From: Asterionella formosa
Lineage: Eukaryota
NCBI GenBank assembly: GCA_002256025.1
Contig: NKIB01006909.1
Coordinates: 1-64,000, forward strand
Length of the DNA stretch: 64,000 nucleotides
Reading direction: 5' to 3'
Positions 4,622-60,019 of the stretch are shown here, piece after piece. Both the position numbers and the translations under genes were made by a program. The notes below the pieces were generated by a model that was not told the origin of the DNA, searched no databases, and saw only the letters and a list, made by a program, of their open reading frames with translations. How positions within the stretch are numbered: the stretch's first letter is position 1; each line of letters begins with the position of its first letter.

Positions 4622-7600
4622 TTAGACCCAAACAACTTCGCCTTCCTCCAAGTCGTCTATGGATATACCGAGCAAACCTAATAACAAATCTGGATTCACC
4701 GAAAAGTGAGAATTTAGATTCTCCAAAGCTGCATGAATATGCAAATGTACTTGTTCGTTTAGATTGGCTTCAATAATCTCGGTCAGCTTTTCTTGAAATT
4801 GCTTCACTGCCCTGTTGAGAAGCCAATCAATTCCAGTGTCCTTGACTGTGAACTTTACTCGTTTTAGCCTGATATCGAGCTCTTGTAGTTGAAGGACAGG
4901 AACGGGAACAGATGTTCCCATCTTCATTATGCGGCCTTTCTTGCACTCGACCCTGAGTAAGATGAAGACATTTTGTACACAGAGACTTCCAAACCCCTCA
5001 AAGATTGGGTCAAAAATAGTCCTGCGCTCGTCTTTTTCAAATCGGAAGTGAAACATGTCGAGGTTCAAGGTAAGTTTCTTCATTTCTAGATAGAGCACGG
5101 TCGAGTCAACGCGAGGATTAAATCGACGTCGAGGACTTTCAGGGAATGCAACGATCTTGGGAAATTTGACTTGACCTGGAAGCTTGCTATCAGATTTAGA
5201 AGGCGGTGGATTACATGTGATGTGGTCAGCTTCCGTAACTTCTTCCCTCTCTTTCTGAAGCTTAATTTGGAACGAAACATCTCGGATGGCAATTTCGAGA
5301 AGTTCATCGTCGTCTATTTCAAGGTTGCGCCAAAGTTCAATGCCGCAGTTTAGAACGCTGGAAACTGGAAGTCCTTGGAGGATATTAGCAACGTATCTAT
5401 CGGTAGGTTGTTGACCTACACCCCCGAAACCGGACTGCCAACACCCGTGAAGCTGAGCATTGAGCAAAAGTTCACGAATTTGATCCAAAATGGAAATCTC
5501 CGTGTTTCCCGGGGCAGACCGAGGGCTGTTTTCGACTGAGGGTTCAGACAGCAAGGAATCGTTATTAGTCACCTCACCAATGCTGGGCACGAGCACGGGA
5601 AAGAATATAGAGTCACCGCCCAAGACTTTGCAGATAAGATTCTCACGTTCTACGGTAACGTCTGAAAGCGTAAGGTCCCCTCCGTCCTCCCCTCTGCAGG
5701 TGAAAACCCAACCATCGCCAAGATCCCGTCGTTCTACCGGTATAGACATCTTTGGTAGATAATCCAAGAATCGCTCGATCGCAAGAGTGCTCTTTTCCCG
5801 AATGAAGACCGGCAATTTTTCGGCATCGACAAACGCTTCTGATGCTTCCCTAAACAACTCGTCGATGTCTACTTCGTCCATCAAATTCAGAATATCGTCA
5901 TCAAGACTTCGATAGTATGGCAAAACCACCATGAATTCTTTTATATCTTTGCAGAAGGATTCCAGGTAAAGAATTAGTTTCTCGTCAAGCTGTTGGATCA
6001 GCTTCACAGCATCATCTTGCATAAGAAAATTGAGCCAGTCAGCGGTGAGATCACCTCCACCGATGCGATGAAACTGGGCGACGCACAGAGAAAACAACTT
6101 GGACATCGGCACCATCATATCCTTGAAGTTATCAGGCATGTTTGTAACAGCCCATCTAAACTCCTCATCTGCAGCATCGAGCATTGGAATCCAAAGCTTC
6201 GCTGCTATAGTAAAATCCTTGAGCATTCTTAATTGGCGTAGGGTATGAATATTTGATGCGTGAATTGTGATCATACGGGACGCGGCGGGCTCGTTTCGGA
6301 AAACTCTAACAAAAACGCGCTCGAGAAATTCCATCATAAAGTCACTTCGAAGGAGTTTCAATACCGATCGACGAGGTGATGCTATCCATTTCAAAGCTTT
6401 TCCTAGTTGGGCCATCTTCTCTGTGTTCCGAATTGATGCACTTTCGTCACCAGACGTGGCTGATGACAGGAGACGGATTATGTATTTGAGAGTCGTACGG
6501 TAATGCATCCGGCTATCCTCCTCAACTATTCTGGACTGCACCAACGCATCTTCTACGCTTTGGACAAATATATCCCATTCACCTTTTTCTAGGGCGAACA
6601 AGAATCTTTCGTCCAGAAGCACAAGGTCGACGAATCGAAGAATACGAACCTTGGCCTTATTGCCTTGACGCTCCATTCGTTCTATGATGCCTTTGATCAC
6701 TTTTTCGATTCGCTCCTTACTTGGGCCTAAAGTTGCGGAAATTTCGGTCATGGTCCTCTTCCAAATAACTAGAGAGGTGGGAGACACATTCTTTTGATGG
6801 ACTTTCACAATGGTCCTCAAAAACAAGAGGAACTCATAGAAAATAGACAGGCCCAGTCGAAGGTTAGGTTGATCTTTACTGGAAGCACGAGCGATGGCTA
6901 CAGTCTTCATAAGTGCTCGAATAACAGAATTGGCCTTCTTGTAGGCTTCTAACAAATCAGCCTTGAGTACTTCAACCGTCGATTCCACGACAGCACTAGA
7001 CTCATCCTTTGGCTTATCTCTCGAAATAAAGATAGAATTGAGAAGCCAGAAACCAGGTCCCGGTTGATCCGCGCAGGATTTGCCGCTTTCCGTAGAAGTG
7101 GCCAGGTCAATTCCAATAGTTTCGACGAAACAGTCCTTGTTCTGTAATTTTGGAGTCATGCTTTCTTTTTCTGTTTCTGGTTTGTCCAACCTGTCCAGGA
7201 AATCAATAATGTTGGTGAAAAAGCGATTGACTCCCTCGTCGAATTCTCGGTCCTCTTCCAGCGCTAGGAGGAAACTATCCCATATTGTTTGAAATCCCTT
7301 GGAGAAAGCCTTCCAATGACCTTTGTCTGGTGACGACTCTTTATGCATCTGATGACGAATAGCAGACTCGTAGTTGTCTACCTGGATTTGGTATTGCGAT
7401 GCTTCGCGAATGAGTTCAATTACAGGAATGAATTCTGGTCCTTGGCACGACAAGATATCACATCTATTGAATTCTAGAACTTGTCCATCATGAGGACCTT
7501 GTTCCTTGATATGGACAAAGTAGCGACCCAATTTGAAATTGCGACCAGCACTGACGTAACTCAAAACGTCGCCTTTACCTAGTGTGGTTTGCACAGCAAA

Positions 7601-10195
7601 GCCAACTGCGGCCTCGACAACGCCTTGAAGGGCTTGCCTATTCAGGTACGCGTTTGCAGAACCTGCCCCCCTCCGTTGCCAGAGAGACCGCACGATATGG
7701 CAATCATCTTCAACTCTCCATCCAACTAGCACACCAACACCAAAGGAAGTAGCAACACAAGCCCCAATTGGAAATTTCGAATGACGGGGTACATATTGTT
7801 TCTCCCAGTCATCCATGATCCTCATAGTCATTTCAGTGAATTTTCCGTCACGAAGGAAGCATCTGTCTAGAATTACTGTGACGGAAAGACAATTGGTGTG
7901 TCGGCGGGATGCATGCCTACTATCTGACTCACAAAAGGGTCGAATATTAACTCGCTTGCAGGAAACTACAGTTCCCATTTGAAAGAATGATGAAGAGACA
8001 TTTCCGAGCTTGACTCCAGGATGCATAGGAAAAATTGGAACTACCATTTTTACACCGGCTTGTAGTATCGGCCTCTGATGCGCAGGCTTGGATAAAGTTG
8101 AAGACGATATTGATACGGTTTGAGTCGTTATGTGGGTTGCTGGAAATGTTCTGACACTGCTATCAACGTGCTGCCTTGATTCCAACTCTTCCGCGGCACT
8201 GAATCCCTCAGGCAAATCAAACCTTTTTGAAAGGCTGGGTGGTCCAGTAATGGTGATATTCACTCCCTCTTCATTTACAACTTCTAACGAGATTGGTTCA
8301 TGACACGACCTTTTAGCTTGCATGCAATCGCCATTTAGCTCCATTGGAGGACTCACTTCAAATTTAGCCAAGAAACAGGGTTCACTATTGAAGTAAACAG
8401 ACTTTGAATTGTCCTTCTTCTGAGTGATCTCACTCGATGCACCTCCAATTTTCACGGTAGATTTCAGTTTGTCTCTTGCGGAGTTCGGAGAAGGTGGTGA
8501 AAAGTCGCTATCTGTAGCGTCTGTAGCGATGACGGGATATCTATGCACAATTGTCGAGTGGGTATCTGACTCTGCTTCATTTTTCGATTTGGTCGAAATG
8601 GAAAGGCTTGGTGACTGAGCCACTGATGACGCTGATGTCCACATGGCATGTACCGGTTTAGGTGGGGGCACCTTTGCCCTTGATGGCGTCGTCACAATAG
8701 CTATCGGTATGTTGGGAGAAATGGTAGTGCTTGACAATTTAAGAGGATCAGAATCTATCGGCTGGGACAAGATGCTACTAGAGTCATTACCAATGCGCTT
8801 TTTTCTCTCGTCTTTTCCAAACTTCTTTTCAACGTTCCTAGTTATAGACTTGATTCGTTCTGCGGTGTCTTGAGAGGCGACGGCTCGCTGAACATGTTCT
8901 GAGTTCAATAGCCGCAAACCGATCCGAGTACCAACATCTACCCAGTTCAGATCGCTGTCTACATCAGATGCAAGCGAGAAAGTTGAATTAAACGAAGACT
9001 CGCTGTGCAAATCGATGCCAACTGACATCACGTCTTCTGCAAATGTCAACGACGAAGCATTGTCATAGTCGTCGTCCGAATCTACGCTATTTTGCAGTAA
9101 GCCACGTTTCTTCGAACATGATCCACTGGTTTCACTAAATTCTTCATCGGACCATCTTTCACTCAATATATTTTGTTCACCCATGAAGTCGACCACGTTG
9201 TTCGGTTCTCCGTTGACAATGCTTTCGTAGATATAGTCGTCCGGAATGTTGTCAATCAACAGTTCACCTATTTCAATGAGATTGCGTGGCTTTGCCTTTT
9301 TGAAGGCTTTTCGCTTTTTTCGCGCTTGAGATAGAATGAAATCATTTTTTATCATAAGATAGCAAAAGTTAACAGACGTGACATGATCTATTGACAGTCG
9401 ACTCCACTCTCCTGGAAATTCTTCCTTCGGCGGTGGACAATCACGGAGAGACTCTCGTTGGCTATCGGTTTGCAGATTTGAAAATGAATAGGAATTTTTG
9501 TTCCATTCTCTGCCAGCTATTTGTCTTCCCCAGACGAGGGTTGCATCTATCCATCTAAGGCATTCATAGGTGGCTTGCCAAATCCCTCGAAGGGATACAG
9601 GCATCACTTTGATGAGCTCATCAACATCTACCAGCACCGGCAGGAAGTGGACAGCAGATATCCAAACAACTTGATAAGTCCAACATAGTGCTTTTTGCAT
9701 CATAAATGCAAAGAGGAAAGCAGCACACAAGACAGCGCATCCAAGTGTTCTAACCCCCAATTTCCAAGATTGGCAGTCCCTTATCATCCAAGAAAAGTAT
9801 TCCTCGCAAAGCTTGGTAAGGAAAATCAAAGCTTGGCTCGGTTTGCTTACTTCATTGAACATCTCCTTCAAACGCTGAATATTTTTGGAGCATAAAATTG
9901 GCTGAAACGAGTATTCTTCTTCGCACCCTTCAGATTGTGGACTCGAAAACATCGGATTCGTGTTTAGCAGCCTTGTCATTCCTTCTCCCAACAAATCACG
10001 TTGTTCCAGTACGCTCGTTTTGGATAATTTTTTGCTTTTCTCGGTCTGATCAAACAAAACTTCTTGAATGGCTCTTCGCCATTTCTCCTTTCGATGAATA
10101 GAAGAGGGTTCTTGTGGTTTCATGTCATTTTCGTTCGCTTTTCGTTTTAAAGCTGTTGTGTCCTGTATGTTCAGGTCGGCATTTATCTGCTCCAT
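4622..10195 (-). CDS. 1857-aa protein of unknown function; N-terminal hydrophobic segment, disordered linker, possible beta-barrel repeats and possible BPI/TULIP-like C-terminus
   Basis: Uninterrupted 5.6-kb ORF starting with ATG; domain suggestions come from motif pattern only. Confidence 0.85.
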   Translation of the reverse strand: MEQINADLNIQDTTALKRKANENDMKPQEPSSIHRKEKWRRAIQEVLFDQTEKSKKLSKTSVLEQRDLLGEGMTRLLNTNPMFSSPQSEGCEEEYSFQPILCSKNIQRLKEMFNEVSKPSQALIFLTKLCEEYFSWMIRDCQSWKLGVRTLGCAVLCAAFLFAFMMQKALCWTYQVVWISAVHFLPVLVDVDELIKVMPVSLRGIWQATYECLRWIDATLVWGRQIAGREWNKNSYSFSNLQTDSQRESLRDCPPPKEEFPGEWSRLSIDHVTSVNFCYLMIKNDFILSQARKKRKAFKKAKPRNLIEIGELLIDNIPDDYIYESIVNGEPNNVVDFMGEQNILSERWSDEEFSETSGSCSKKRGLLQNSVDSDDDYDNASSLTFAEDVMSVGIDLHSESSFNSTFSLASDVDSDLNWVDVGTRIGLRLLNSEHVQRAVASQDTAERIKSITRNVEKKFGKDERKKRIGNDSSSILSQPIDSDPLKLSSTTISPNIPIAIVTTPSRAKVPPPKPVHAMWTSASSVAQSPSLSISTKSKNEAESDTHSTIVHRYPVIATDATDSDFSPPSPNSARDKLKSTVKIGGASSEITQKKDNSKSVYFNSEPCFLAKFEVSPPMELNGDCMQAKRSCHEPISLEVVNEEGVNITITGPPSLSKRFDLPEGFSAAEELESRQHVDSSVRTFPATHITTQTVSISSSTLSKPAHQRPILQAGVKMVVPIFPMHPGVKLGNVSSSFFQMGTVVSCKRVNIRPFCESDSRHASRRHTNCLSVTVILDRCFLRDGKFTEMTMRIMDDWEKQYVPRHSKFPIGACVATSFGVGVLVGWRVEDDCHIVRSLWQRRGAGSANAYLNRQALQGVVEAAVGFAVQTTLGKGDVLSYVSAGRNFKLGRYFVHIKEQGPHDGQVLEFNRCDILSCQGPEFIPVIELIREASQYQIQVDNYESAIRHQMHKESSPDKGHWKAFSKGFQTIWDSFLLALEEDREFDEGVNRFFTNIIDFLDRLDKPETEKESMTPKLQNKDCFVETIGIDLATSTESGKSCADQPGPGFWLLNSIFISRDKPKDESSAVVESTVEVLKADLLEAYKKANSVIRALMKTVAIARASSKDQPNLRLGLSIFYEFLLFLRTIVKVHQKNVSPTSLVIWKRTMTEISATLGPSKERIEKVIKGIIERMERQGNKAKVRILRFVDLVLLDERFLFALEKGEWDIFVQSVEDALVQSRIVEEDSRMHYRTTLKYIIRLLSSATSGDESASIRNTEKMAQLGKALKWIASPRRSVLKLLRSDFMMEFLERVFVRVFRNEPAASRMITIHASNIHTLRQLRMLKDFTIAAKLWIPMLDAADEEFRWAVTNMPDNFKDMMVPMSKLFSLCVAQFHRIGGGDLTADWLNFLMQDDAVKLIQQLDEKLILYLESFCKDIKEFMVVLPYYRSLDDDILNLMDEVDIDELFREASEAFVDAEKLPVFIREKSTLAIERFLDYLPKMSIPVERRDLGDGWVFTCRGEDGGDLTLSDVTVERENLICKVLGGDSIFFPVLVPSIGEVTNNDSLLSEPSVENSPRSAPGNTEISILDQIRELLLNAQLHGCWQSGFGGVGQQPTDRYVANILQGLPVSSVLNCGIELWRNLEIDDDELLEIAIRDVSFQIKLQKEREEVTEADHITCNPPPSKSDSKLPGQVKFPKIVAFPESPRRRFNPRVDSTVLYLEMKKLTLNLDMFHFRFEKDERRTIFDPIFEGFGSLCVQNVFILLRVECKKGRIMKMGTSVPVPVLQLQELDIRLKRVKFTVKDTGIDWLLNRAVKQFQEKLTEIIEANLNEQVHLHIHAALENLNSHFSVNPDLLLGLLGISIDDLEEGEVVWV

Positions 10196-11380
10196 ATCGA
10201 TCTTAAGAACTCTATTTAATTTGTGAATCGCCGTGGGTTAGTAGATGACCTATGATGTAGTGTTTTTCTAGGAATGAAGGCAAACACAGACTGACGATTC
10301 ACAGTAGTTTACGATGGAAGTATATTTAAGCGGTTCTTTGTCGTCATTTTTATTTTGTTGTGAGTGTATTTTGCCGTTATGGGATCATGAGTTTCCGTTT
10401 TGGTGCTCCTCGTCTTGATCCTATATCCCACGAATACCGGCACATGCATATCGTCTCGGTACACTACCTGGTACTGGTACCAGGTACTGAAATGTCGAAC
10501 CGGTAGACAGGAAGGTCCGGTAATGGCGCTATCATTGCACTTAGTCAGTTTTTGCAATTTTTTGGGTCAGGATTAAAAAAGCATTCTGGACCAGATAGCT
10601 ACTATGGCAGACTTTTAAAAATTCTATCCCAAATCTACTGGTATTTCCTATTCTTGTTTTTTAAACATGTATAGCCCTTTAATTCTGGAGAAAAAGACAA
10701 CAATGGCTGTATATGGAATTAATTTGAGAATTAAACAGTGTACGAATATTGCCAGTGATTAGCAAATTGTGTTCACGAGATACAAAGCATGATGGTATTT
10801 TGATTCAGCAATCAGCAAGTGCTATTACTACTACTAGAGTGATCGGTGATTGCTATTAGCAATCAGCAATTGCTGTTATTGTTCCACAGTCACTGTCAGA
10901 AATCAGAACAAGGTGCCTCCAGGTAGCCAAGTAGCTTGACTAGTATGAGCATACTAGAAGTACAAGCCTACTAGACTACCTGATAAAGGTATAGTAGACT
11001 AGACTAGTAATAGACTATTATAGGTAATATGATATTATGTAAACTTTTAGCTTGTGTCTGGCCGGAAGCCACAGACACATAGAATAATAGCAAATTAATT
11101 TATTTTAGATGATTTAATTATACATATTTCGATTTAACGGAACAAATTGGTCCTTTAGGCTCCTGAATTTGAACCCTTAGCTCGAGGTAGAGTTAAAATA
11201 CATATCAAGTCAGAGTAGTCACACACACACACTTCTTACGAGTAAGATTTGAATGTATATCGCTAAACGGAGCTTTCACCAATAGACACCCTTTCTATAT
11301 GCATAAAAGCATGTCTGTGAATAGATTTTCCATTCGATCTAACGTTTTACTAAGCATACATGAAAAAACTGATTGATTAT

Positions 11381-13418: not shown

Positions 13419-16388
13419 TCATACATACTGGTAGGGTATTAAATGTTCCTTCGAAAAAGTTACTAGACATACAGAGATGTATGTTATACACACTTTTTGA
13501 AGAAGAGGAAATGTTGAGATATTGCTAAAAAATTCATGCCGGAAATGCATTCTAGTCCACATAACAAACTGATGAGGTAATGGTGATAGAGAGCCTTCTA
13601 CCGGTATCAAACCAACCGGTGAGAAGAGGTAAGTTATATGATTGTTTTGCTTCTCAACTGTGGCTACCAAGGGTCTTATGATCGGTAACATGTGAGACCG
13701 GAAGCAAACTATAAAATTGTATCGCTGTTTGTGTGCGCTGCTACCACTCAAAGTTTCTACACTTCCTCAGGAAGAACGATAAAAATCAACCTAATTACGA
13801 GGTAAGAAACTACACTTAATATCTTTGTGCACAATGCTGCAGAGGGTTTGTTGTGTCTGTGTCCAATAATTTGGATTTCGACAATAAGAACATCTTTCCC
13901 TTCCATATATGCAGATGTGAGGGTTAACAACGATACCTGTCACCCATCTATCAACAGTGAGAGCATAGGTAAGTTACTATACTCTCATTTGATGCTTTTT
14001 ATGTCGATTGGAACGTGAAGTTACTATATAGATTATTTATGTCATCAGTTCATGGCACATGTGTGGCTGGAGATGCTTTAATCGTTGCAACACTTTTGCT
14101 AACATTGATATTATCTCCTCAAATTGATATTATCTCCTCAAAATCATACAGGAACCTTGGAGAATGTGGCTTGCTACCATTCTTAATGGAAGCAACAATC
14201 AACCATGCATGAGAGCACAGGTAAGTTATATGCACATTGCCTGCTCATACGGAAATTGGAGTGATGGATTCTTGTTTATGTGATCGTTTCGTTGCACATA
14301 TCTTCGTTTAGATGCCTTGCTTACTTGATGCAACAGTTTTGCTAACATTGTTGTTATTATCTCTTACAGGAAGTCGTACAAGAACATGGGAGTATGTGAC
14401 TTGCTGACATTCGCAATGGTAGAGGTTCGAATAAAGCATCATCAATTTCGTTTACTCTCTCATTTCATTTTGAAAAGGCAATGATCTAAACATAGCTACC
14501 GGAAGTGAAAATTAAGGTATTGAAGACCACTGTGTGCTCATTCTGATAGAGGATGCACAGTGGAAAGTATGGGTGACCAGAAGTAGAATATTTGAGTATT
14601 AAATAGCAATCCATTTAATCGATTTGTGTTCATCATTGATTGAACATGATAATAGGTTTGATCGATGAGAGAAATAAGTTAGATCAGTAGTAATGAACGT
14701 TAGATCGAAAGCTAAAAATTCTATTTGATATTAGCATTGCAAAGGTTAGATCGAATCAATAACTGATTTGATCTCACAATTACTAGCTATCTTTAGATCG
14801 AACACCAAAACGTTAGTTGATATCAATCAGTTTTTTTGTATGATCAATCAAAAAATAATACGTCATACTGAGAAATTTTTGGGGCAGTGGGTCTTACCGC
14901 AAAACTGTTAGCCCTAACGGTTTTTTATTTACAGACGCAGTCATTGATCAAATTAGAGGTATAGATCAACGCTATCATCATATATCGTCAGGAAATACTA
15001 GGATCTGGAGATAAATTGCAGAAAGGAACTTAGTAGGTTTTTTAAACTATGCTGAAAATAGTGAATTTTACTGGGAAAATCGAATTTCCTTCCTGCACTT
15101 TCTTACCGAAAAGTTGACTTCTGGGGCGATACGAAGATTATCTATATTCTTAAATCTTCTTTAAAACTTTACAAGGCAACGTTGAGCTATAATCGTCCCA
15201 AAATTCGACAATATCGGCCTTTTCAATGGTCTCCAAAATGTCGGAATCAGAATCACTAATCGCCAAAATGTCATCATCAGAATAGGAGTCTTGCCATTCA
15301 ATTTTTTTCGTCCTGTTCAAAAAATTCCATTGTAATTGCCCGCTTCACTATTAAATTTTTGATTGGTCACAAGTTGAATTACTTACCAACAACATTTGAT
15401 TGGCCCAGTTTGCACAGGAGTCTTGCAAACCCACGCTGGCCACCACACTGGATGCACATGTAACATTTTCTTGGGTGCTGGCTGGAACAATATCCAAAAT
15501 AGGAGTTGCTTAGCTGATCATTAGTGATTGTACTATGTGTACCAGTACTAGAATGCACCAGATTGTATGAGATGTTTATGTTGATCATAGTATAGGGCAT
15601 AGTATGGTGTACATCATGGACTGGTGAGGATGTAAACTGTTTATTTATATATTTAGCAAATTCGAAAAGGAATCTATGTAAATATGCGCAAATTTCCAAT
15701 GATTTAAATATTTCAAATGGAATCATGTCATTCAAAATTATTCCATAGAAATTCGTAGTTCCAGGGAATTTCGGCAACCCTAAGCAATAATTAAATTTTT
15801 GCCTAGGGGTTCAAATGCAGGAACCTTGAACTATTTTGCATTACATTGTTATTCTAATTGACATATTTTGGACTGAAACATATCACTCAAATTTATTTGG
15901 CAAATGTCAATTTCATGGGTATGCACAAGCACTACTGATTTGTTAACTGATAATGCTCCAGCATAATGTTCTGTTTGAATTCCTGTGTCTGCCCGTTATC
16001 CACCTTTTACCGGCATGCGCATGTACGAGGACTGAGCGATTGTCACAACGAAATGATCATCATTTAGTACAGGTATATACCGGTATTGATATGAATATAT
16101 GTACGACGGGAATTCCGGCAAACTGAGGAAAATGCGATAACAAATAAAAAAATATTTAAATTGTCCATCCATCATGTTTCGCTCTCTGTCGCTCATGGTG
16201 TTGTTCCACAACAGATTGGTTGGGAGACTGATATCTGTGCTGCACAAGTAATGATAGATGATGATATTGTAGACGATGTCCTGCCTCGTCGTGCGAGAGT
16301 ACCGGTATGCTGCCTTTTTCGTTGCGCATAAAACTGATCTCCATGAATTCTTTCTTCGCGCTGGTTATCCTAGTTCATTCTGCTGAAC

Positions 16389-25127: not shown

Positions 25128-26306
25128 ATGAAGTTCGCCAAGCCCATTGCCTTCTTGCTTCTTTGCAACGGTATCGCTGCTTTCGTCCCGCGCCATCAGC
25201 GCCGACAGCTCGCCCCAGCTCTGGCAGCGCGAGGTAAATCCAAGGCGAAGAAGGCGGCTGCGGCCGCCAGGACTCTCGAGTCGCCACCAGTTGCAGAAGT
25301 TGCCACCGAGACAAATGTATTGCCTCTGGTAGCAGATGTTGTGCTTGAGATTGCTCAGTCTCCACTAGAAACAGGTGAGTCGCATCGTTTGTCCCACACG
25401 TGTTGCGAAGGCACGGATGATTCTCATATGGTGGCATGATTCATAATCGGCGACTGCCGAAAGGGTGAAGCAACTCCTTGAATGGCAAGGGGAGCTAGTC
25501 GGGTCGCCAAAAGGCCTGCACTATTTCATGTTAAAGCTGACAACCTTACTCTTTCCCATGCAGAAGTTTCAAAACATTCCGGCAACAATCAAGAATTAGC
25601 CCGACGAGGCCTGATGCAGGCACGCTTAGCAATGGAAGCAAAGGCGCGCGCAGCTGTTTCACAAGTGGCTTCTGAACTTGCAACCGAAGGTGTTCCTGAA
25701 ACAGAAGTAGTCTCAGTAGCGGAAGAAACGACTTCACCGGGCCTAGTGGAGAGTCAACTTGCCATGGAGGCTAAAGAACTCAAGGAAGCAGCCGCTCGCG
25801 CATCAAAAGTACGACAAGACGCAATTTCTAGGGCACTTTTGGGAGCCCAGTTGGAGTACACCGCCAAGGCTCGCCTCGCAGATGCCAAGAGGAAGAGTCA
25901 ACTTGCCATGGAGGCTTAAGCACTCAAGGAAGCCGCCGCTCGCGCATCAAAAGTACGACAAGATGCAATTTCTAGGGCACTTTTGGGAGCCCAGTTGGAG
26001 TACACCGCCAAGGCTCGCCTCGCAGATGCCAAGAGGAAGAGTGACTTGCTCGCAGCTCAATTGGCGATGGAGGAGGAGGCTAGAATTCTTGAGAGTGAAC
26101 GTCTAGCAGCTATTGAAGCTAAGAAAGGAGATTTCGAAGCTATGCGTGTTCAACCCAAATCTCACGATGAGGAGGCAGCTCTTCAGGCCAAATATGGCGC
26201 AATGGAGGTCGGTGAGCGAGCTTTCAATATTTTGTTAGACCTCGGATATATCACACTTTCCCCTGAACCTGGCGACGCTGACTTTGACGGTGACGATTTC
26301 GTTTAA
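25128..26306 (+). CDS. Predicted plastid-targeted Ala/Glu-rich coiled-coil protein; exons 25128-25374 and 25564-26306; in-frame TAA at 25917-25919
   Basis: Signal peptide followed by IAA|FVP (ASAFAP-like); GT-AG intron 25375-25563 in frame; the frame resumes after the TAA and runs to 26306. Confidence 0.75.
25750..26042 (+). repeat. 144-bp (48-codon) near-perfect tandem duplication within the CDS
   Basis: Units start at 25750 and 25894 (AGAGTCAACTTGCCATGGAGGCT...); I count 4 substitutions. Confidence 0.95.
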
Positions 26307-27406: not shown

Positions 27407-28293
27407 CGTCAAAAAGTGCCTTCAAGGGAAACAGAAAACTGAGCAAAATTTATTCGCTATATTTATACGTATGCATAAAAATAATAATTCTTTATGAGCG
27501 TATGAGCGTATCATCCAGTAATTAGTTTGTATGATATCACTGAGAAACTATAGCTAAACGATGCCACCACGAGCGAATGAGCAAAATGTACCGGAATATG
27601 AAAATGTATACATAAACACATTATGTATATGGATACTGGGAAGGAGTGTACCGGTATATGGCTGCAATGATCTTCAGAACATATCTAATATAATAATAAT
27701 ATTATATGTTTGGATGCCCAATCGTAGGCCCGTGTTCTCGGGATTACCGTATTCTTCTTACATCCGTACTCCAGGTACCAGGGTGCTCCCCCCCGTTGGG
27801 AACTGTCACAATATGGTATCTGTTTACGTACAGTAATAAAAATCACAGAATAAACGTACGCATCCACATGCGTATTTCTTTTTTAATATGTATTGATGGA
27901 CGTCATCATCGAAGTGACGTTGTTGCTTGCTGCGATTCCAGCCAAAATCTATACCGGTAGTACCTGCATCAAGTTGCGATAATTGTGCTGAAACTAAAAC
28001 GTTAGCTATCTTTATCCCATATTAAATTGTTTATTTAAGGAAAATGACCGCAGCTTGCATGCGTGGTACAGTACAGTACCGGTACGGTTATGAGATATTT
28101 ACAAGCTGATTCTACAGACCACAAGCAATCTCCCAGCATCTGAAACATCCAAAACGACTGCTACGAGGTACCGGTTCCTACATACCGGTACCTGTATACA
28201 TCCAGATGATATTTCCAGATGGTATACAGTACTATGACACTGCTGCTATGTAGTAACTATGCTGTGTACAGTACTGGTAAGGATTCCTCGTAA

Positions 28294-29005
28294 GGTTCCT
28301 GCATTTGAACCCCTAGCTCGAGGTAGAGTTAAAAAATAATATTGAGTCAGACTATTCCAACACATACTTTTCACGAGTAAAAGGAAATGTATTACGCTCA
28401 ACGGAGCTTTCACCATTAGACACCCTTTCCATTTGCTTACATATATAGATATAGGTCTTCGGACAAAGTCCACTGTATATATCGTCAGGATACCGGTATT
28501 GGATCTGGCGAACTTCCGTTTTTTTACTATATATATGCTAAAAATACAAAGACTGGAAAATTCGGGGGAAATACCGGGTATTTTTATTTGGTATAGTAAA
28601 AATACAGAAGTTCCTTCCTGCACTTTCTTACCGGAAGAGATATACTGATCCTATTTGAAGGTTACATATGTATTGAAATCGCCTTCAGACCCAGCCGATG
28701 TTGAGCTATTGTCATCTGAAAATTCGACAAAATCGGCCTTTTTCTACTGTCTCCAAAATATCGGAAGCAGAATGACTATGACCCAAAACGTCATCGGAAT
28801 TTTAAATCCTAAAATCTTCTGTCCAATAAAATCCATTGAAAGTGCCTGCATCCAGTTGTATAATATGATTATAGGTCAACGAGAATTACTTACCTCCATT
28901 TAATTGGCCTGATCTGCATGGTGATGTTGCAAACATTCGAAGTTCCAGGTAATTTCGGGAACCCTAGGCATATTTAAACTTGGCCTAGGGGTTCAAATGC
29001 AGGAA
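28294..29005. mobile_element. 712-bp MITE-like non-autonomous relative of the 11158-15825 element
   Basis: Left TIR GGTTCCTGCATTTGAACCCCTAG (28294-28316) preceded by TAA; right TIR 28985-29005 lacks the last 2 nt; subterminal blocks such as AACGGAGCTTTCACCA and TTCCTTCCTGCACTTTCTTACCG are shared with the large element. Confidence 0.88.
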
Positions 29006-30539: not shown

Positions 30540-30940
30540 TCTGCAATGATCGCAATTACTCTACAGAACGGAACAAGCGTAGATCGAATCACGACGAAAC
30601 CATGTGCCGCCGGACCCAGAAAAGAAGACATGCCAACAATGGTTTTTACTGCATGCATGAAAAATGGCTGTATACCGGTACTAACTGGTAAGTACCTGGT
30701 ACCTTGTAAAGGTGCCAGGGTACCCAGTACCAGGTACCAGGTACCAAGTATCACAGGTATCGCTTTTCCTCTGTCCTGTTCTGTTCTAGTACCGGTAACT
30801 GCAACACCTTTAGGTTGTTTTACTCCCCTGTCCATTCTTCTCTAGGTGGCAACAAAGACACAATAATTATCTTGAAATAGACAAAGTAACATGTTATTGT
30901 TCTCTTTTTGGTGGGACCAGAAATACATATAGTATCTATC

Positions 30941-34275: not shown

Positions 34276-34414
34276 TGCGGCTCACAAAAAGACAGGTCCC
34301 ATTGTGCATACTGCACAGATGAATAAAACCGGTACTAATTGTGTCCATTTATTAGGCTGCCCCAGTGAGATTATTGGATAGCTTTAACATATGATAAAGT
34401 TTAATTGACTTTTT
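34276..34414 (+). mobile_element. 5'-truncated, diverged copy of the SINE-like element at 58305-58539
   Basis: Collinear blocks AAAAGACAGGT, AATAAAACC.GTACTA, CTAATTGTGTCCATTTATT, TTGGATAGCTTTAACATA and TTTAATTGAC. Confidence 0.85.
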
Positions 34415-55697: not shown

Positions 55698-56243
55698 TTA
55701 AAACATATCATCCTCCACTCCTCTTAAGTAATCCCCAATATCAGCTTGATGAAGCACCACATTTCCCGTCGGCTCCAAGGTTTGACAGTGCTCAGTCGAT
55801 TGCGCTGCTACACCGAATCCCAGGGGAATGTCATTCATGTTGTACACAATGACCCCTGCATACTGGGGTGTGGCTTCAGTCATTCTAGCCAATCCATTCT
55901 TGGTGACGTGATTTCCGTACAGAAAGCTCATTTCCGCACTTGGCTTGACCCACACCTTGTATTTCGCATACTGTGCCAAGTGGTCAAGCGATGTGATGGA
56001 GAGGCGAAACTTGCCACTCTTGGAAAATTTCCCCAAGCACACCCCCACATGAAGTAAGTCGTCTCGTGCAATGGATGTGGCGGCAGTCATGAGCGACTCG
56101 CTGACATAGTAAACCCGGTCCTTGATTAAACGAAAGCAATGGCGTTCGTCGGAGCGATTGATCAGTCGTTCTATTGATTTCCCGATGTATTCAGAAAGTT
56201 TGATAAAGAGAGTTTTGGTTTCTTCTTCTGTTAGTGGTCTCAT
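55698..56243 (-). CDS. NIP7: 60S ribosome biogenesis factor NIP7
   Basis: [30 protein letters not shown] and [10 protein letters not shown]. Confidence 0.96.
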
Positions 56244-58304
56244 GGTGTTGTTGCTTTTGCTGTTCTTCTTGTTATGTGCTTCTGTGGATCTGAAGTTGTT
56301 CTTGTTGATCGAATGCAGTCAGGCGGGAGCAAGACAACTGACAACGACAATTGTATTGCTTTGTTACCGGTAGCTAATTATTGTTAGCAATTGTATTTCT
56401 TAACCTTAATAAGTATATTATTTCGAAGGTCAATCATTCAAAGAAGTGGAATGATCATAGCATGATTCTTACGCTCATGCTTGCAGATATCAACTCTAAT
56501 CATGTCTACAGTTACCACAGGGAGTAAACCGTACCGATAGTATCAGGTACCAGTTACCTAGTACCTGCTACCAGGGTACCAGTACACATCATTCTTGCTT
56601 TGGTCTTTCTTTTGGGACCACTCCTCTCCTGGTGAACAAGCAAAAGCCGACAAGTTTTTCGTTGGCTTGGGACCATGCTATGGTCTGACTGTCACCAGCT
56701 CGTCGTTGCGACACAACAGATACCGGGTACCTGGTACCGGGGGGTATATAGACCGGAACATGGAGCACTTGTCGTTGCAGATTGGATTCGGATGCCAGGG
56801 CAATGGCATCATAAAAGTTGTTGTACATAACTAGATATGGCTAAATAAATAGTTTCTCTCCTACTCCATCATGCTAATGGAAAAGTACCCCTCTATAGCC
56901 AACTGCACAATTTGGACTTTCTGAAAAATGACATTAACTGGTAACTGTTCCTAGATGTTGCGGTTTGTGTAAGTCAGACCTCGTCACATCTAAAGTGGTT
57001 ACCAGTTAAAGTCATTATTGAGGATAGAGCTTTGCTGTAGGCCTGCCTGCTTGTCAGAAAGGCAAAGATGGCGAAGGAGGAGGTAAGGGCACCATTGCGG
57101 CTGGTGTCAGACGAGTTGTCACAATTGATTCTCTTCACCTGCATTGTTGATTGTTAAATGTGATTGCTGAAATGTCCTCTAATGATCCATCTTCTTTCAT
57201 AACCTTCCTGAAGTAGGCACAGTTTGCGATCTAGTACTAGTGGAGAATGAAGACATGATACAGAAGGAGTCCTCGGTGTATCTTTGATCCATCATCATGT
57301 TCAGGGACTGGAGCATTTCGGGATTGCTGTGTGGGAAGGAGTTTGTCAGTTGAAGTTTGATACACTTAGAAGCGAATGTGCTTGCTGTCCCATGAGGTGT
57401 CCAGCCATACTAGCATCCAACAATCATCCAATGTCACCATTCATTAGGAAGGCAAAATATTCACTCAACATGTTTGTAGAAATTGAATTAACAAATATAA
57501 ATGCTACTATAGTGATAATCAACGCATCTACTGTTCCTTGATTCACAAGAGTAGCTGCATTGTTATCATCGGCCAGTAGCAAGAGCAACCATCATTGACC
57601 TATCAAGTTGTTGCAACAAAACGGCTTGCAAGTCTCCATGATGGTACCACCAACCTCGGCGGTTCCGCCATTATCGGAGGAGGGGCGTGAAAAGATGAAA
57701 TATTCGACTATAGAGAAAAGTGAAAAAACGAAAATAAAAAATTCCTTAAATAACCATTGACCTACATGACGTTCCCGTAGACGACATGCCGGAGCAAAAT
57801 TTCTATCCGTCACGACGAGGACTGCTCCATGTGGGTAATGCATAAGTGGAAGTATGATGATAGATGTATGAGGGCGAGTACTGGTGTGTTGCGTTAAATG
57901 AGAAATTAGCTTTGTTTTCCTCATATTAGAAAACCGTCTTTTACCGCAACTCCCTCTGGTACCACTACACATATCACAAGGGAATGAATGTGAGCAAGTA
58001 GTAGTCTACCCGGTATCAAATTCCTTACACCAATAGCAGCCAGTACGCGTTTGTACAAGCTATATGCTTTAGTCCTTGTAGACAACTCAAATGTAGACAG
58101 CAACATTTTGTTTCCTTATTTTTTGTGATCTTATTAAACTAGAAATTGATTTACAATCGATTCCACTCTACTTATTTCAGATCAGTTAGATCTTGGATCT
58201 TTTACCCAAACTTTCATATAGATAACCAAGTTATGATAATGATCTGTTCTTGATCATTTAATCATTCTTTTTCTTCATAACATGTATAGAATAATGTTTT
58301 ACTT

Positions 58305-58539
58305 AGGGGAATGGCTTAGTGGTTAGCACACCTTCTGTGGTGGCAAGTTCGATTCCTGCATTCTAGTACACCTGTCTTTTTCATGTAGTCCCTTGCATTC
58401 CGGGGGTGCAGCTGATGAAAAGACAGGTTCCATTGTACCATGGACAAATAAAACCTGTACTAGCTAATTGTGTCCATTTATTTGGGCCTGAGTGCGTTTT
58501 TGGATAGCTTTAACATAAAGTAAAATTTAATTGACATTT
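58305..58539 (+). mobile_element. tRNA-derived SINE-like element, 235 bp, with 18-bp target-site duplication
   Basis: A box TGGCTTAGTGG at 58312-58322; B box GTTCGATTC at 58347-58355; identical TAGAATAATGTTTTACTT at 58287-58304 and 58540-58557; second partial copy at 34276-34414. Confidence 0.88.
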
Positions 58540-59113
58540 TAGAATAATGTTTTACTTGCATTGTCAGTAGCTCCAATGGTAATGACATGCCTGTGAATAG
58601 TTCAATACATAGAACATCCACCTTTCCAAATATTCCATCCCATCTTGTTAAGTGTATGTTTGTCTTCATTTACATTAGTTCAAATATTTCTTCAACAGAA
58701 ATAGTTTCGCCATATAATATTGATGTGCACATTGATGGAATGCTGTTAACCCTAAATCACTCTAGATTTTGTCATGCGGCATGGTACAAATGACACAACA
58801 ACCGACATGTACCTACATAGAGAAATAATGATCATACATAATTCATAGGTTAGCACAAAACAGATAAACGAAATAATAACGGCCAACCAAAATTAATTAA
58901 AGGCAACCAGGATGTAGATTTCTTCGTCATCGCGTCGGGCGAGCATGCTTCAGGCTGATTCAGTAAGTGCGAATATTGTTGAATTGAAAAATGAACAAGC
59001 TTCTGGCTGTCATTTCAACTTTCGAAAGCAGTCGACTGATGAATGGACACAACAGCGACTGCCTACACCCAGCCTGGAAATCCCGCAATCATCGGCTGCC
59101 CTAATTACAAGCA

Positions 59114-60019
59114 ATGTCGGCCCAAAATGACAACTCGCTTCACGGTGCCCTGGCCGGAACTGGCTCCTCCGTAGAGGAGGCGCTGTTGGGATTTATGAGC
59201 GGCGTCGTCTTTGGACTGGTTTCACCCATAGTCGGACATCCACTCGATACCATCAAGACAAAAATGCAAGCAGAAGCTGCTTACCAATCATCAACGTTTA
59301 CCCGCACGGTGCAGCAGGTATGGCGGCTTGAGGGACTTTCGGGTCTCTATCGCGGCATCGGACCTCCACTGCTGGGATCAATGGTCTTCCGAGGGCTGTC
59401 CTTCAGTGCGTACTCAGGAACCTACGCCGCATGCGAACGCGTTACTGTCCTCAAGGAGCCCATACCCTATACTGGAGGAATCCGTCCCAGTGTGCTGGTG
59501 GCAGCTATGGCAGCGTCCTTTGCACGAGCCACTGTGGAATCACCGCTGGACTTTATCAAGCTGCGCTCGCAAATTGGAAAGGAAGCCATGCATGCCACCT
59601 CCAATCCAATAGTGCAGTTGAGACATTTATATCAGGGATACCTACCGACACTTCTTCGGACCATGGGTCTATTAGGAAGTTTTTTCATTATGGTTGAGTA
59701 CAGCTTAATCTATATCCCAGATGTCATTAATGCTCCTTTGATTGGACCATTCTTCAAGGGTGGCGTGTGCGCAACGGCGGCTTGGGTATTTGCCTTTCCT
59801 TTTGAAACTGTCAAGTCCGTCATTCAAGCAGATCATACTGGGAAATACACATCTATGAAACATGCAACTTGGAAAGTCATGGGACAGATTCAGAGAGAAC
59901 GAGGGATCAAAGGACTGTATCGAGGCTTTGGACCAGGTGCCAGTCGGTCCTTTATAGCAAATGGGACAAGTATGGTGGTATATGGGTGGTTCCAAGATGC
60001 AATAAGAAAAGAAATATAG
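59114..60019 (+). CDS. Mitochondrial carrier family (SLC25) protein, substrate uncertain
   Basis: Three Px[DE]xx[KR] motifs (PLDTIK, PLDFIK, PFETVK) and GLYRG motifs. Confidence 0.93.
   Translation: MSAQNDNSLHGALAGTGSSVEEALLGFMSGVVFGLVSPIVGHPLDTIKTKMQAEAAYQSSTFTRTVQQVWRLEGLSGLYRGIGPPLLGSMVFRGLSFSAYSGTYAACERVTVLKEPIPYTGGIRPSVLVAAMAASFARATVESPLDFIKLRSQIGKEAMHATSNPIVQLRHLYQGYLPTLLRTMGLLGSFFIMVEYSLIYIPDVINAPLIGPFFKGGVCATAAWVFAFPFETVKSVIQADHTGKYTSMKHATWKVMGQIQRERGIKGLYRGFGPGASRSFIANGTSMVVYGWFQDAIRKEI

Follow-up and report, generated by a model that had tools for sequence, protein, structure and literature searches.

The insertion described here lies in the window, the whole 64,000-nucleotide stretch of DNA that was analysed, and is very probably a copy of a non-autonomous diatom retroposon of the SINE2/tRNA class, whose tail is homologous to a resident LINE clade, which was mobilised by the protein of that LINE and which now sits, decayed, in the remnant of a Copia LTR. 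Sequence comparison establishes the tRNA-Ala origin of the family (family A), its dispersal, its creation of target-site duplications (TSDs), the pattern of its truncations and the similarity of its tail to LINE ends. Family A is a well-supported SINE of a known class, with an architecture that is textbook in animals and plants and barely described in diatoms. The tRNA parent of this diatom SINE has been traced, its insertion sites are proven, and a poorly studied clade of RNase H LINEs supplies a candidate partner; its insertions could be used to tell strains of a freshwater diatom apart.

Boundaries, empty sites and age of the copy

The earlier note had described two identical 18-mers bracketing 235 bp, and these are indeed in place (58287-58304 and 58540-58557). 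The window holds 8 other exact direct repeats of at least 14 bp that are 50-1000 bp apart, so the 18-mer repeat alone is no proof of an insertion, and it is the evidence from the family that supplies it. The A box, T-arm (one mismatch), shortened anticodon region and T-ending tail that had been read in the sequence are all present, the A and B boxes being assigned on the Pol III box consensus. The start of the insert had been placed at 58305. The family begins at a run of G, which here falls at 58306, and the preceding base differs between copies; the A at 58305 belongs to the target, as its 19th base, and every one of the 17 empty sister sites has A there. The TSD thus measures 19 bp with one later change and the SINE occupies 58306-58539, which means that the repeat noticed earlier is real but one base longer than the 18 bp given, with one mismatch, and that the insert measures 234 bp and not 235. 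The features are collected in Table 1.

Table 1. Features of the insertion, its host repeat and its relatives (window positions unless a contig is named)
Feature	Position	Strand	Basis
Copia LTR remnant, split by the SINE (ends approximate)	58012..58774	-	54 candidates, 40 scored
Left TSD, 19 bp	58287..58305	+	18 bp identical to right copy; 19th base A as in 17/17 empty sites
Full-length SINE, family A, 234 bp, decayed	58306..58539	+	matches consensus 1-234
tRNA-Ala(AGC)-derived head (62 nt in consensus), acceptor stem broken here	58306..58370	+	best tRNA match; consensus cloverleaf
Pol III A box (putative)	58312..58322	+	read in sequence; nearly invariant in 11 aligned copies
Pol III B box (putative), inside T-arm (58343-58359)	58346..58356	+	read in sequence
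Body hairpin stacked on acceptor stem; five-T run at 58377-58381	58370..58428	+	consensus helix; compensatory swaps between families A and B
LINE-like 3' tail; 6-bp basal stem disrupted in window copy	58484..58539	+	aligns with LINE 3' ends
Right TSD, 19 bp, final base G not A	58540..58558	+	18-mer identity; empty sister sites
Second family-A copy, 5'-truncated, consensus 100-234, 82%	34276..34413	+	consensus match; no TSD evident on inspection
Family B copies	L244-L263, e.g. G000:C3233 near 7400-7630	-	same head and hairpin, different LINE-like tail

Empty sister sites give direct evidence that the repeat was made by the insertion itself. The repeat flanking the SINE is the remnant of a Copia LTR, since in one copy (locus L233) it adjoins a Copia gag ORF (PF14223). 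The check for empty sites that had been proposed turned out in favour of an insertion, in that 17 of the 19 sister LTRs fetched span the site with a single copy of the target, the two remaining loci being one that stops at a contig edge and one that diverges earlier. On its left side the host LTR is 84-88% identical to its sisters, which are mostly ~96% identical among themselves. Both copies of the TSD have A at position 8, where 17 of 17 sisters have T, which indicates that this change predates the duplication. A contig of sequencing run X11 omits exactly 253 bp at the site and was considered as an orthologous empty allele. It was ruled out as such and assigned to a sister LTR, given that ~10% of the flank positions differ and that it is deeper than the exact-match contigs of the run; that it differs from the flanks is explained by the flanks being themselves a repeat (54 candidates).

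The earlier suggestion of a fairly young insertion is contradicted by the divergence of the copy. Over 227 aligned bases the window copy differs from the consensus by 24 substitutions, besides 6 indels (10.6% overall, 7.7% outside CpG), which places it among the older copies in a family where 54 copies range from 1.3%, the youngest, to 17.9%. It groups with older copies in the SINE tree, most of which is unresolved (3 of 51 branches starred), and neither its acceptor stem nor its 3' stem is intact. The near-perfect TSD (1 mismatch in 19) leaves room for a few percent of change in each copy and gives no sign of youth. Family-wide, divergence at CpG is 20.4% as opposed to 6.0% elsewhere (3.4 times), and 201 of 237 changes at CpG are C>T or G>A. 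This excess points to CG methylation of the family-A repeats, as read from their substitutions. With its CpG loss and broken stems, the window copy is old and decayed and almost certainly inert.

Dispersed copies and a head derived from tRNA-Ala

The prediction of a multi-copy SINE with copy-specific TSDs was borne out by searching the genome with the insert and scoring the flanks of the hits. The search of the assembly (15,436 contigs) returned 602 candidates, 40 of which were scored, the window copy included, the others being 80-83% identical. The exact 23-nt head occurs 66 times, compared to 0 for its reversed control. Among the best 30 tail hits there are 24 full-length copies, 13 with the exact head, and 6 that are 5'-truncated; from this fraction and the 66 exact heads we estimate at least ~120 full-length copies. 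A TSD score of at least 10 was reached at 25 of 30 loci (a set that includes two duplicate pairs and the window copy), and by 5 of 870 mismatched-flank controls, 4 of which are those duplicates, leaving 1 of 866 non-duplicate controls. When 54 distinct full-length copies were compared, 42 had a TSD of their own, ranging from 10 to 25 bp, with 27 of 17-20 bp and 16 perfect. In 28 of these 42 the TSD starts with T, a weak preference with little other target preference beside it. Of the 54 copies, 42 finish in 3-7 T, and one 5'-truncated family-A copy carries a perfect 19-bp TSD.

Several copies depart from this plan. Loci L087 (G000:C160) and L091 (G000:C1163) are internally deleted, and L087 retains both ends and an apparent TSD without most of the LINE-like tail; L267-L269 and L154 join family-A bodies to a longer, family-B-like head or a variant hairpin and are possible intermediate subfamilies. 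A metagenome scan returned 6 loci, namely 2 ordinary tRNA-Ala genes and 4 family-A-like pieces, and no distant related SINE family. In RNA run X17 the head is covered by contigs from other family copies and several silent bins are bare, a weak hint of expression that was kept out of the evidence; contigs of this kind show neither ends, strand nor polymerase.

Host tRNA-Ala(AGC) is the best match to the head among 25 tRNA rows, a subset of the host tRNAs made up of 20 of 62 tRNA hits and 5 pattern hits, and the 3' end of the head is identical to it at 26 of 29 positions. On this sequence evidence the match identifies the host tRNA-Ala(AGC) as the parent of the family-A head. The consensus head of 62 nt folds into the four arms of a cloverleaf, and the head and hairpin of a natural young copy adopt the same fold (z = -3.2; 1 of 200 shuffles as good). 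The acceptor stem had been reported as improper, which holds for the window copy, where a 3-nt insertion and a substitution disrupt it, but not for the family, whose consensus pairs at 7 of 7 positions and retains G3·U70 and A73. Alanine identity rests mainly on the G3·U70 pair (PMC9976931). The anticodon loop appears to have been lost, with a short hairpin made from the old variable loop in its place; the head does not have the complete cloverleaf with a 7-nt anticodon loop of a functional tRNA gene. SINE heads often lose the cloverleaf, young families keeping most tRNA features (PMC8450103), and its retention in the family-A head is notable.

The body hairpin has an 11-bp basal helix in the consensus, and families A and B differ in this hairpin by two adjacent compensatory swaps. 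In 46 of 54 copies the hairpin keeps five or six consecutive T. The five-T run of family A lies 5 nt past the discriminator base and matches in length the T runs that follow host tRNA genes, where a run of 4-8 T occurs within 25 nt downstream in 23 of the 25 rows, the other two belonging to one tRNA-Ile/tRNA-Ala pair. Judging from this placement, the hairpin T run could act as a leaky terminator.

The shared tail, the candidate partner LINE and rival explanations

The earlier note had spoken of an unidentified partner LINE. A candidate clade has now been found by matching the tail to LINE 3' ends, although no intact partner was found among the matches scored: the last ~55 nt of the SINE match the 3' ends of a clade of LINEs with endonuclease, RT and RNase H. 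A first RT search with PF00078, from which 50 loci were fetched, included a Gypsy-type family and a GC-rich LINE, and no SINE match to these was seen at E<=5 in the first 30 loci. The partner candidate came to light through locus L124, where an element next to a Gypsy-type hit, broken but bearing RT and RNase H-like motifs, has a 3' end that matches SINE 178-220. Pfam returned nothing in three open-frame fragments of this element, and four separate copies of its lineage terminate at the same place. A search with the RNase H region gave 129 matches, and the SINE tail was matched downstream of 12 of 30 fetched RNase H LINE loci, better than in all 30 shuffles, mostly ~850-1100 nt downstream of the matched domain and in lineages that are only 40-60% identical in protein. 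The matches amount to ~75-86% identity over 40-55 nt of AT-rich sequence, and 18 of the 30 loci are without one.

Homologues of the LINE have ORFs of ~2000 aa with hits to PF03372 (endonuclease) and PF00078 (RT), and one of them is from the diatom Fragilaria crotonensis. Their profile gives RNase H hits at positions 1448-1595 and weak similarity to R2 proteins (PDB), and their consensus has a CCHC motif. The candidate TSDs that bound four LINE copies measure 17, 19, 17 and 14 bp; the third and fourth, at a score of 11, do no better than background loci. The TSD-bounded spans are 7.2 and 8.5 kb. An intact ORF2 was found in none of the LINE matches scored, in which the longest frames are 845 aa and 749 aa compared to ~2000 aa in full-length homologues. 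A bipartite origin, with the SINE body taken from the 5' end of the LINE, was rejected, as four TSD-bounded LINE copies (two of them 5'-truncated) match the SINE only in its 3' tail.

A 6-bp basal stem appears to recur in the LINE and SINE ends: across 29 of 30 rows, 163 of 174 cells are paired, and one position shows a two-sided change. The window copy has lost this stem, and the rows are related sequences picked by motif. The 15 group-A LINE ends were chosen partly by tail match, which inflates this count as well as the contrast between families A and B given below. Between the strands of the stem lies a lineage-specific insert, the enclosed part being 17-24, 39-40 or 50 nt long.

Judging by its traits, the partner clade is probably Ambal. 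Ambal elements are defined by an AP endonuclease, an RT and an RNase H in one long ORF, exceed 10 kb, have an ORF1 and make TSDs of ~9 bp. The partner LINE has the domains of this definition, and its candidate TSDs are 14-19 bp as against ~9 bp.

Three groups of LINE loci deserve mention in their own right. L124/L217 (G000:C5148, ~56030-64490) is an 8.5-kb RNase H LINE with flanks that seem to continue a Gypsy-type ORF on both sides, and it was probably inserted into a Gypsy-type element. L204-L207 and L215 (e.g. G000:C761, C13713, C12643) form a young RNase H LINE lineage with copies 93-99% identical and frames of up to 845 aa, several of which begin at one contig edge; the lineage is a candidate for recent activity. 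L031-L044 (e.g. G000:C14560) represent a GC-rich (~56%) endonuclease-RT LINE found on many small contigs at 97-99% identity, which may have arrived recently or belong to a co-assembled organism.

Family B (215 nt; 345 candidates) has its head and hairpin in common with family A, and shows a compensatory change in the T-stem compared to the tRNA; 10 of 16 hits carry a TSD. Scored on the 15 group-A LINE ends, the family-A tail reaches 44-66, and on 5 copies of a younger, distant lineage it reaches 26-34, whereas the family-B tail scores 52-63 against the younger lineage and 24-39 against group A, except for 64 with L211. The five younger copies count as one sequence in this contrast, and L211 blurs a one-to-one pairing. 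In a quick LINE tree of local copies and unnamed homologues the younger lineage forms a branch of its own and L211 is nested in group A. Taken together, the tails suggest that switching of partners between LINE lineages is likely, and sister families whose LINE-like tails differ allow a direct test of both tail recognition and the switching of partners. A joint reading of heads and tails goes further and is, as a whole, unlikely. Selection would have kept a 62-63-nt, anticodon-less mimic of tRNA-Ala in two sister SINEs (with an acceptor stem paired throughout, G3·U70, CC after A73, a compensatory T-stem change and a rebuilt anticodon arm), each provided with the tail of a different Ambal-type LINE lineage. 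Master copies might then give rise to two transcripts, one that reads through and retroposes and a short, pre-tRNA-like one that is possibly trimmed, CCA-added and alanine-charged, and that would act as a decoy for tRNA-handling enzymes.

By analogy with characterised elements, we infer transcription by Pol III, mobilisation by the LINE and binding of a stem-loop for family A. The RNA of the SINE would end in the ~55-nt segment homologous to the 3' end of the LINE clade, which is predicted to encode an AP endonuclease, an RT, an RNase H and a CCHC finger. The LINE protein would bind the 3' stem-loop of the SINE RNA and nick DNA at loosely T-rich sites, reverse transcription would be primed at the target from the U-rich end, and a staggered second cut ~17-19 bp away would produce the long TSD.

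The main alternative retains a true SINE and assigns its movement to a different enzyme, for example that of the young GC-rich endonuclease-RT LINE, the likeness of the tails being a relic of origin or AT-rich convergence. The GC-rich LINE is the most intact non-LTR element found, with frames of up to 1008 aa and copies 97-99% identical, and the LINE copies that share the tail are mostly broken. Nevertheless, the SINE has no match to 30 RT loci at E<=5, a search in which the true 3' end of the GC-rich LINE was not recovered, and the tail motif lies at the terminus of many lineages of the RNase H clade, whose TSD lengths agree with those of the SINE. This makes mobilisation by another enzyme decidedly improbable.

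An origin outside retroposition has far less to recommend it. The strong inverted repeat within the SINE speaks for a MITE-like non-autonomous DNA transposon that had captured a tRNA fragment, but this repeat is internal and not terminal, and short TSDs of fixed length are absent. Long TSDs of variable size (10-25 bp), 5' truncation and a T tail of variable length, all seen here, are the marks of target-primed reverse transcription and leave such an element very little probability. The cloverleaf of the consensus head, with its alanine identity elements, might also suggest a conserved single-copy RNA gene or a tRNA pseudogene beside a chance 18-mer repeat. The check for a conserved RNA gene that had been proposed came out clean: neither ARAGORN nor Rfam calls anything at the SINE, ARAGORN finds no tRNA in the whole window or on the family-A consensus, and Rfam gives no match at E<=1 in 57000-60000. 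With many dispersed copies that have different TSDs, and with empty sister sites, we regard the chance of such a gene as practically nil.

Known systems and genomic setting

The preferred reading, a SINE mobilised by the LINE with which it shares its tail, has close counterparts among known systems. Like the SINE2/tRNA elements of stringent SINE-LINE pairs (PMC5786205), family A consists of a tRNA head with Pol III boxes, a body and a LINE-like tail, with TSDs and 5' truncations; here, however, the host is a diatom and the candidate partner is an endonuclease-RT-RNase H-CCHC LINE instead of an L2, CR1, RTE or L1 element. The 3' end here is a short T run, and the head has been cut to 62-63 nt yet folds into a cloverleaf. 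Of the attributes of a SINE2/tRNA element, a tRNA head with boxes, short dispersed copies, and the characteristic TSDs, 3' end and truncation were found. Those of a bipartite RTE-derived SINE, a body from a LINE 5' UTR and an RTE partner, were not, the candidate partner having an RNase H. A precedent is provided by zebrafish ZfL2-1 and ZfL2-2, in whose 3' ends a stem that is conserved and a loop that varies are recognised (PMC4176376). The tails described here are comparable in that the basal 6-bp stem appears to be common and the loop varies by lineage, but they belong to a different LINE clade.

That diatom SINEs are poorly described, as the earlier note supposed, is supported by the literature searched, in which no description of such a family was found. 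Our searches of article texts returned no tRNA-headed diatom SINE family like family A, diatom SINEs appearing only as software-assigned classes, and no SINE partner for Ambal-type LINEs. The putative SINE of P. tricornutum, reported as the first in a diatom, comprises 13 copies and 1,454 bp in total and was assigned by software; the passages of PMC5859163 that treat it give no tRNA origin, TSD or partner. In S. tropicum SINEs make up 0.065% of the genome as a class total (PMC11032307). Ambal is a Repbase clade name (PMC5753468), and these elements occur at a relatively high proportion in the Pleurosigma genome (PMC12803021). The main text of the SINE-LINE survey (PMC5786205) includes neither diatoms nor other stramenopiles, and the account of RNase H capture by oomycete elements in PMC5348765 does not mention Ambal in its passages on the subject.

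The SINE is flanked by a NIP7 gene (55698-56318, minus strand) and by an ORF at 59105, presumably a mitochondrial carrier by its look, and no ORF of at least 120 aa overlaps it. The NIP7 matches with organism names are mostly diatoms, the top one being Pseudo-nitzschia at 81%, with a brown alga and a flagged contaminant placed lower in the list. On the strength of these matches the host is taken to be a diatom. Most of the sequencing runs that contain the stretch are freshwater metagenomes.

The GC content of the window is mostly 36-50%, and other repeats occur in it. Another dispersed repeat, with direct and inverted copies at 11157-11305, 15082-15827 and 28292-29005 and a common core of 21-25 nt, is probably a distinct non-autonomous element. 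Many short palindromic repeats of the GGTACC type lie between genes (866-927, 30692-30763, 56708-56742 and others), and 25750-26037 is a tandem duplication of a 144-nt unit with 97% identity. At ~57700-57830, contigs of all four sequencing runs compared match at ~90%, so a further repeat may adjoin the LTR on its left.
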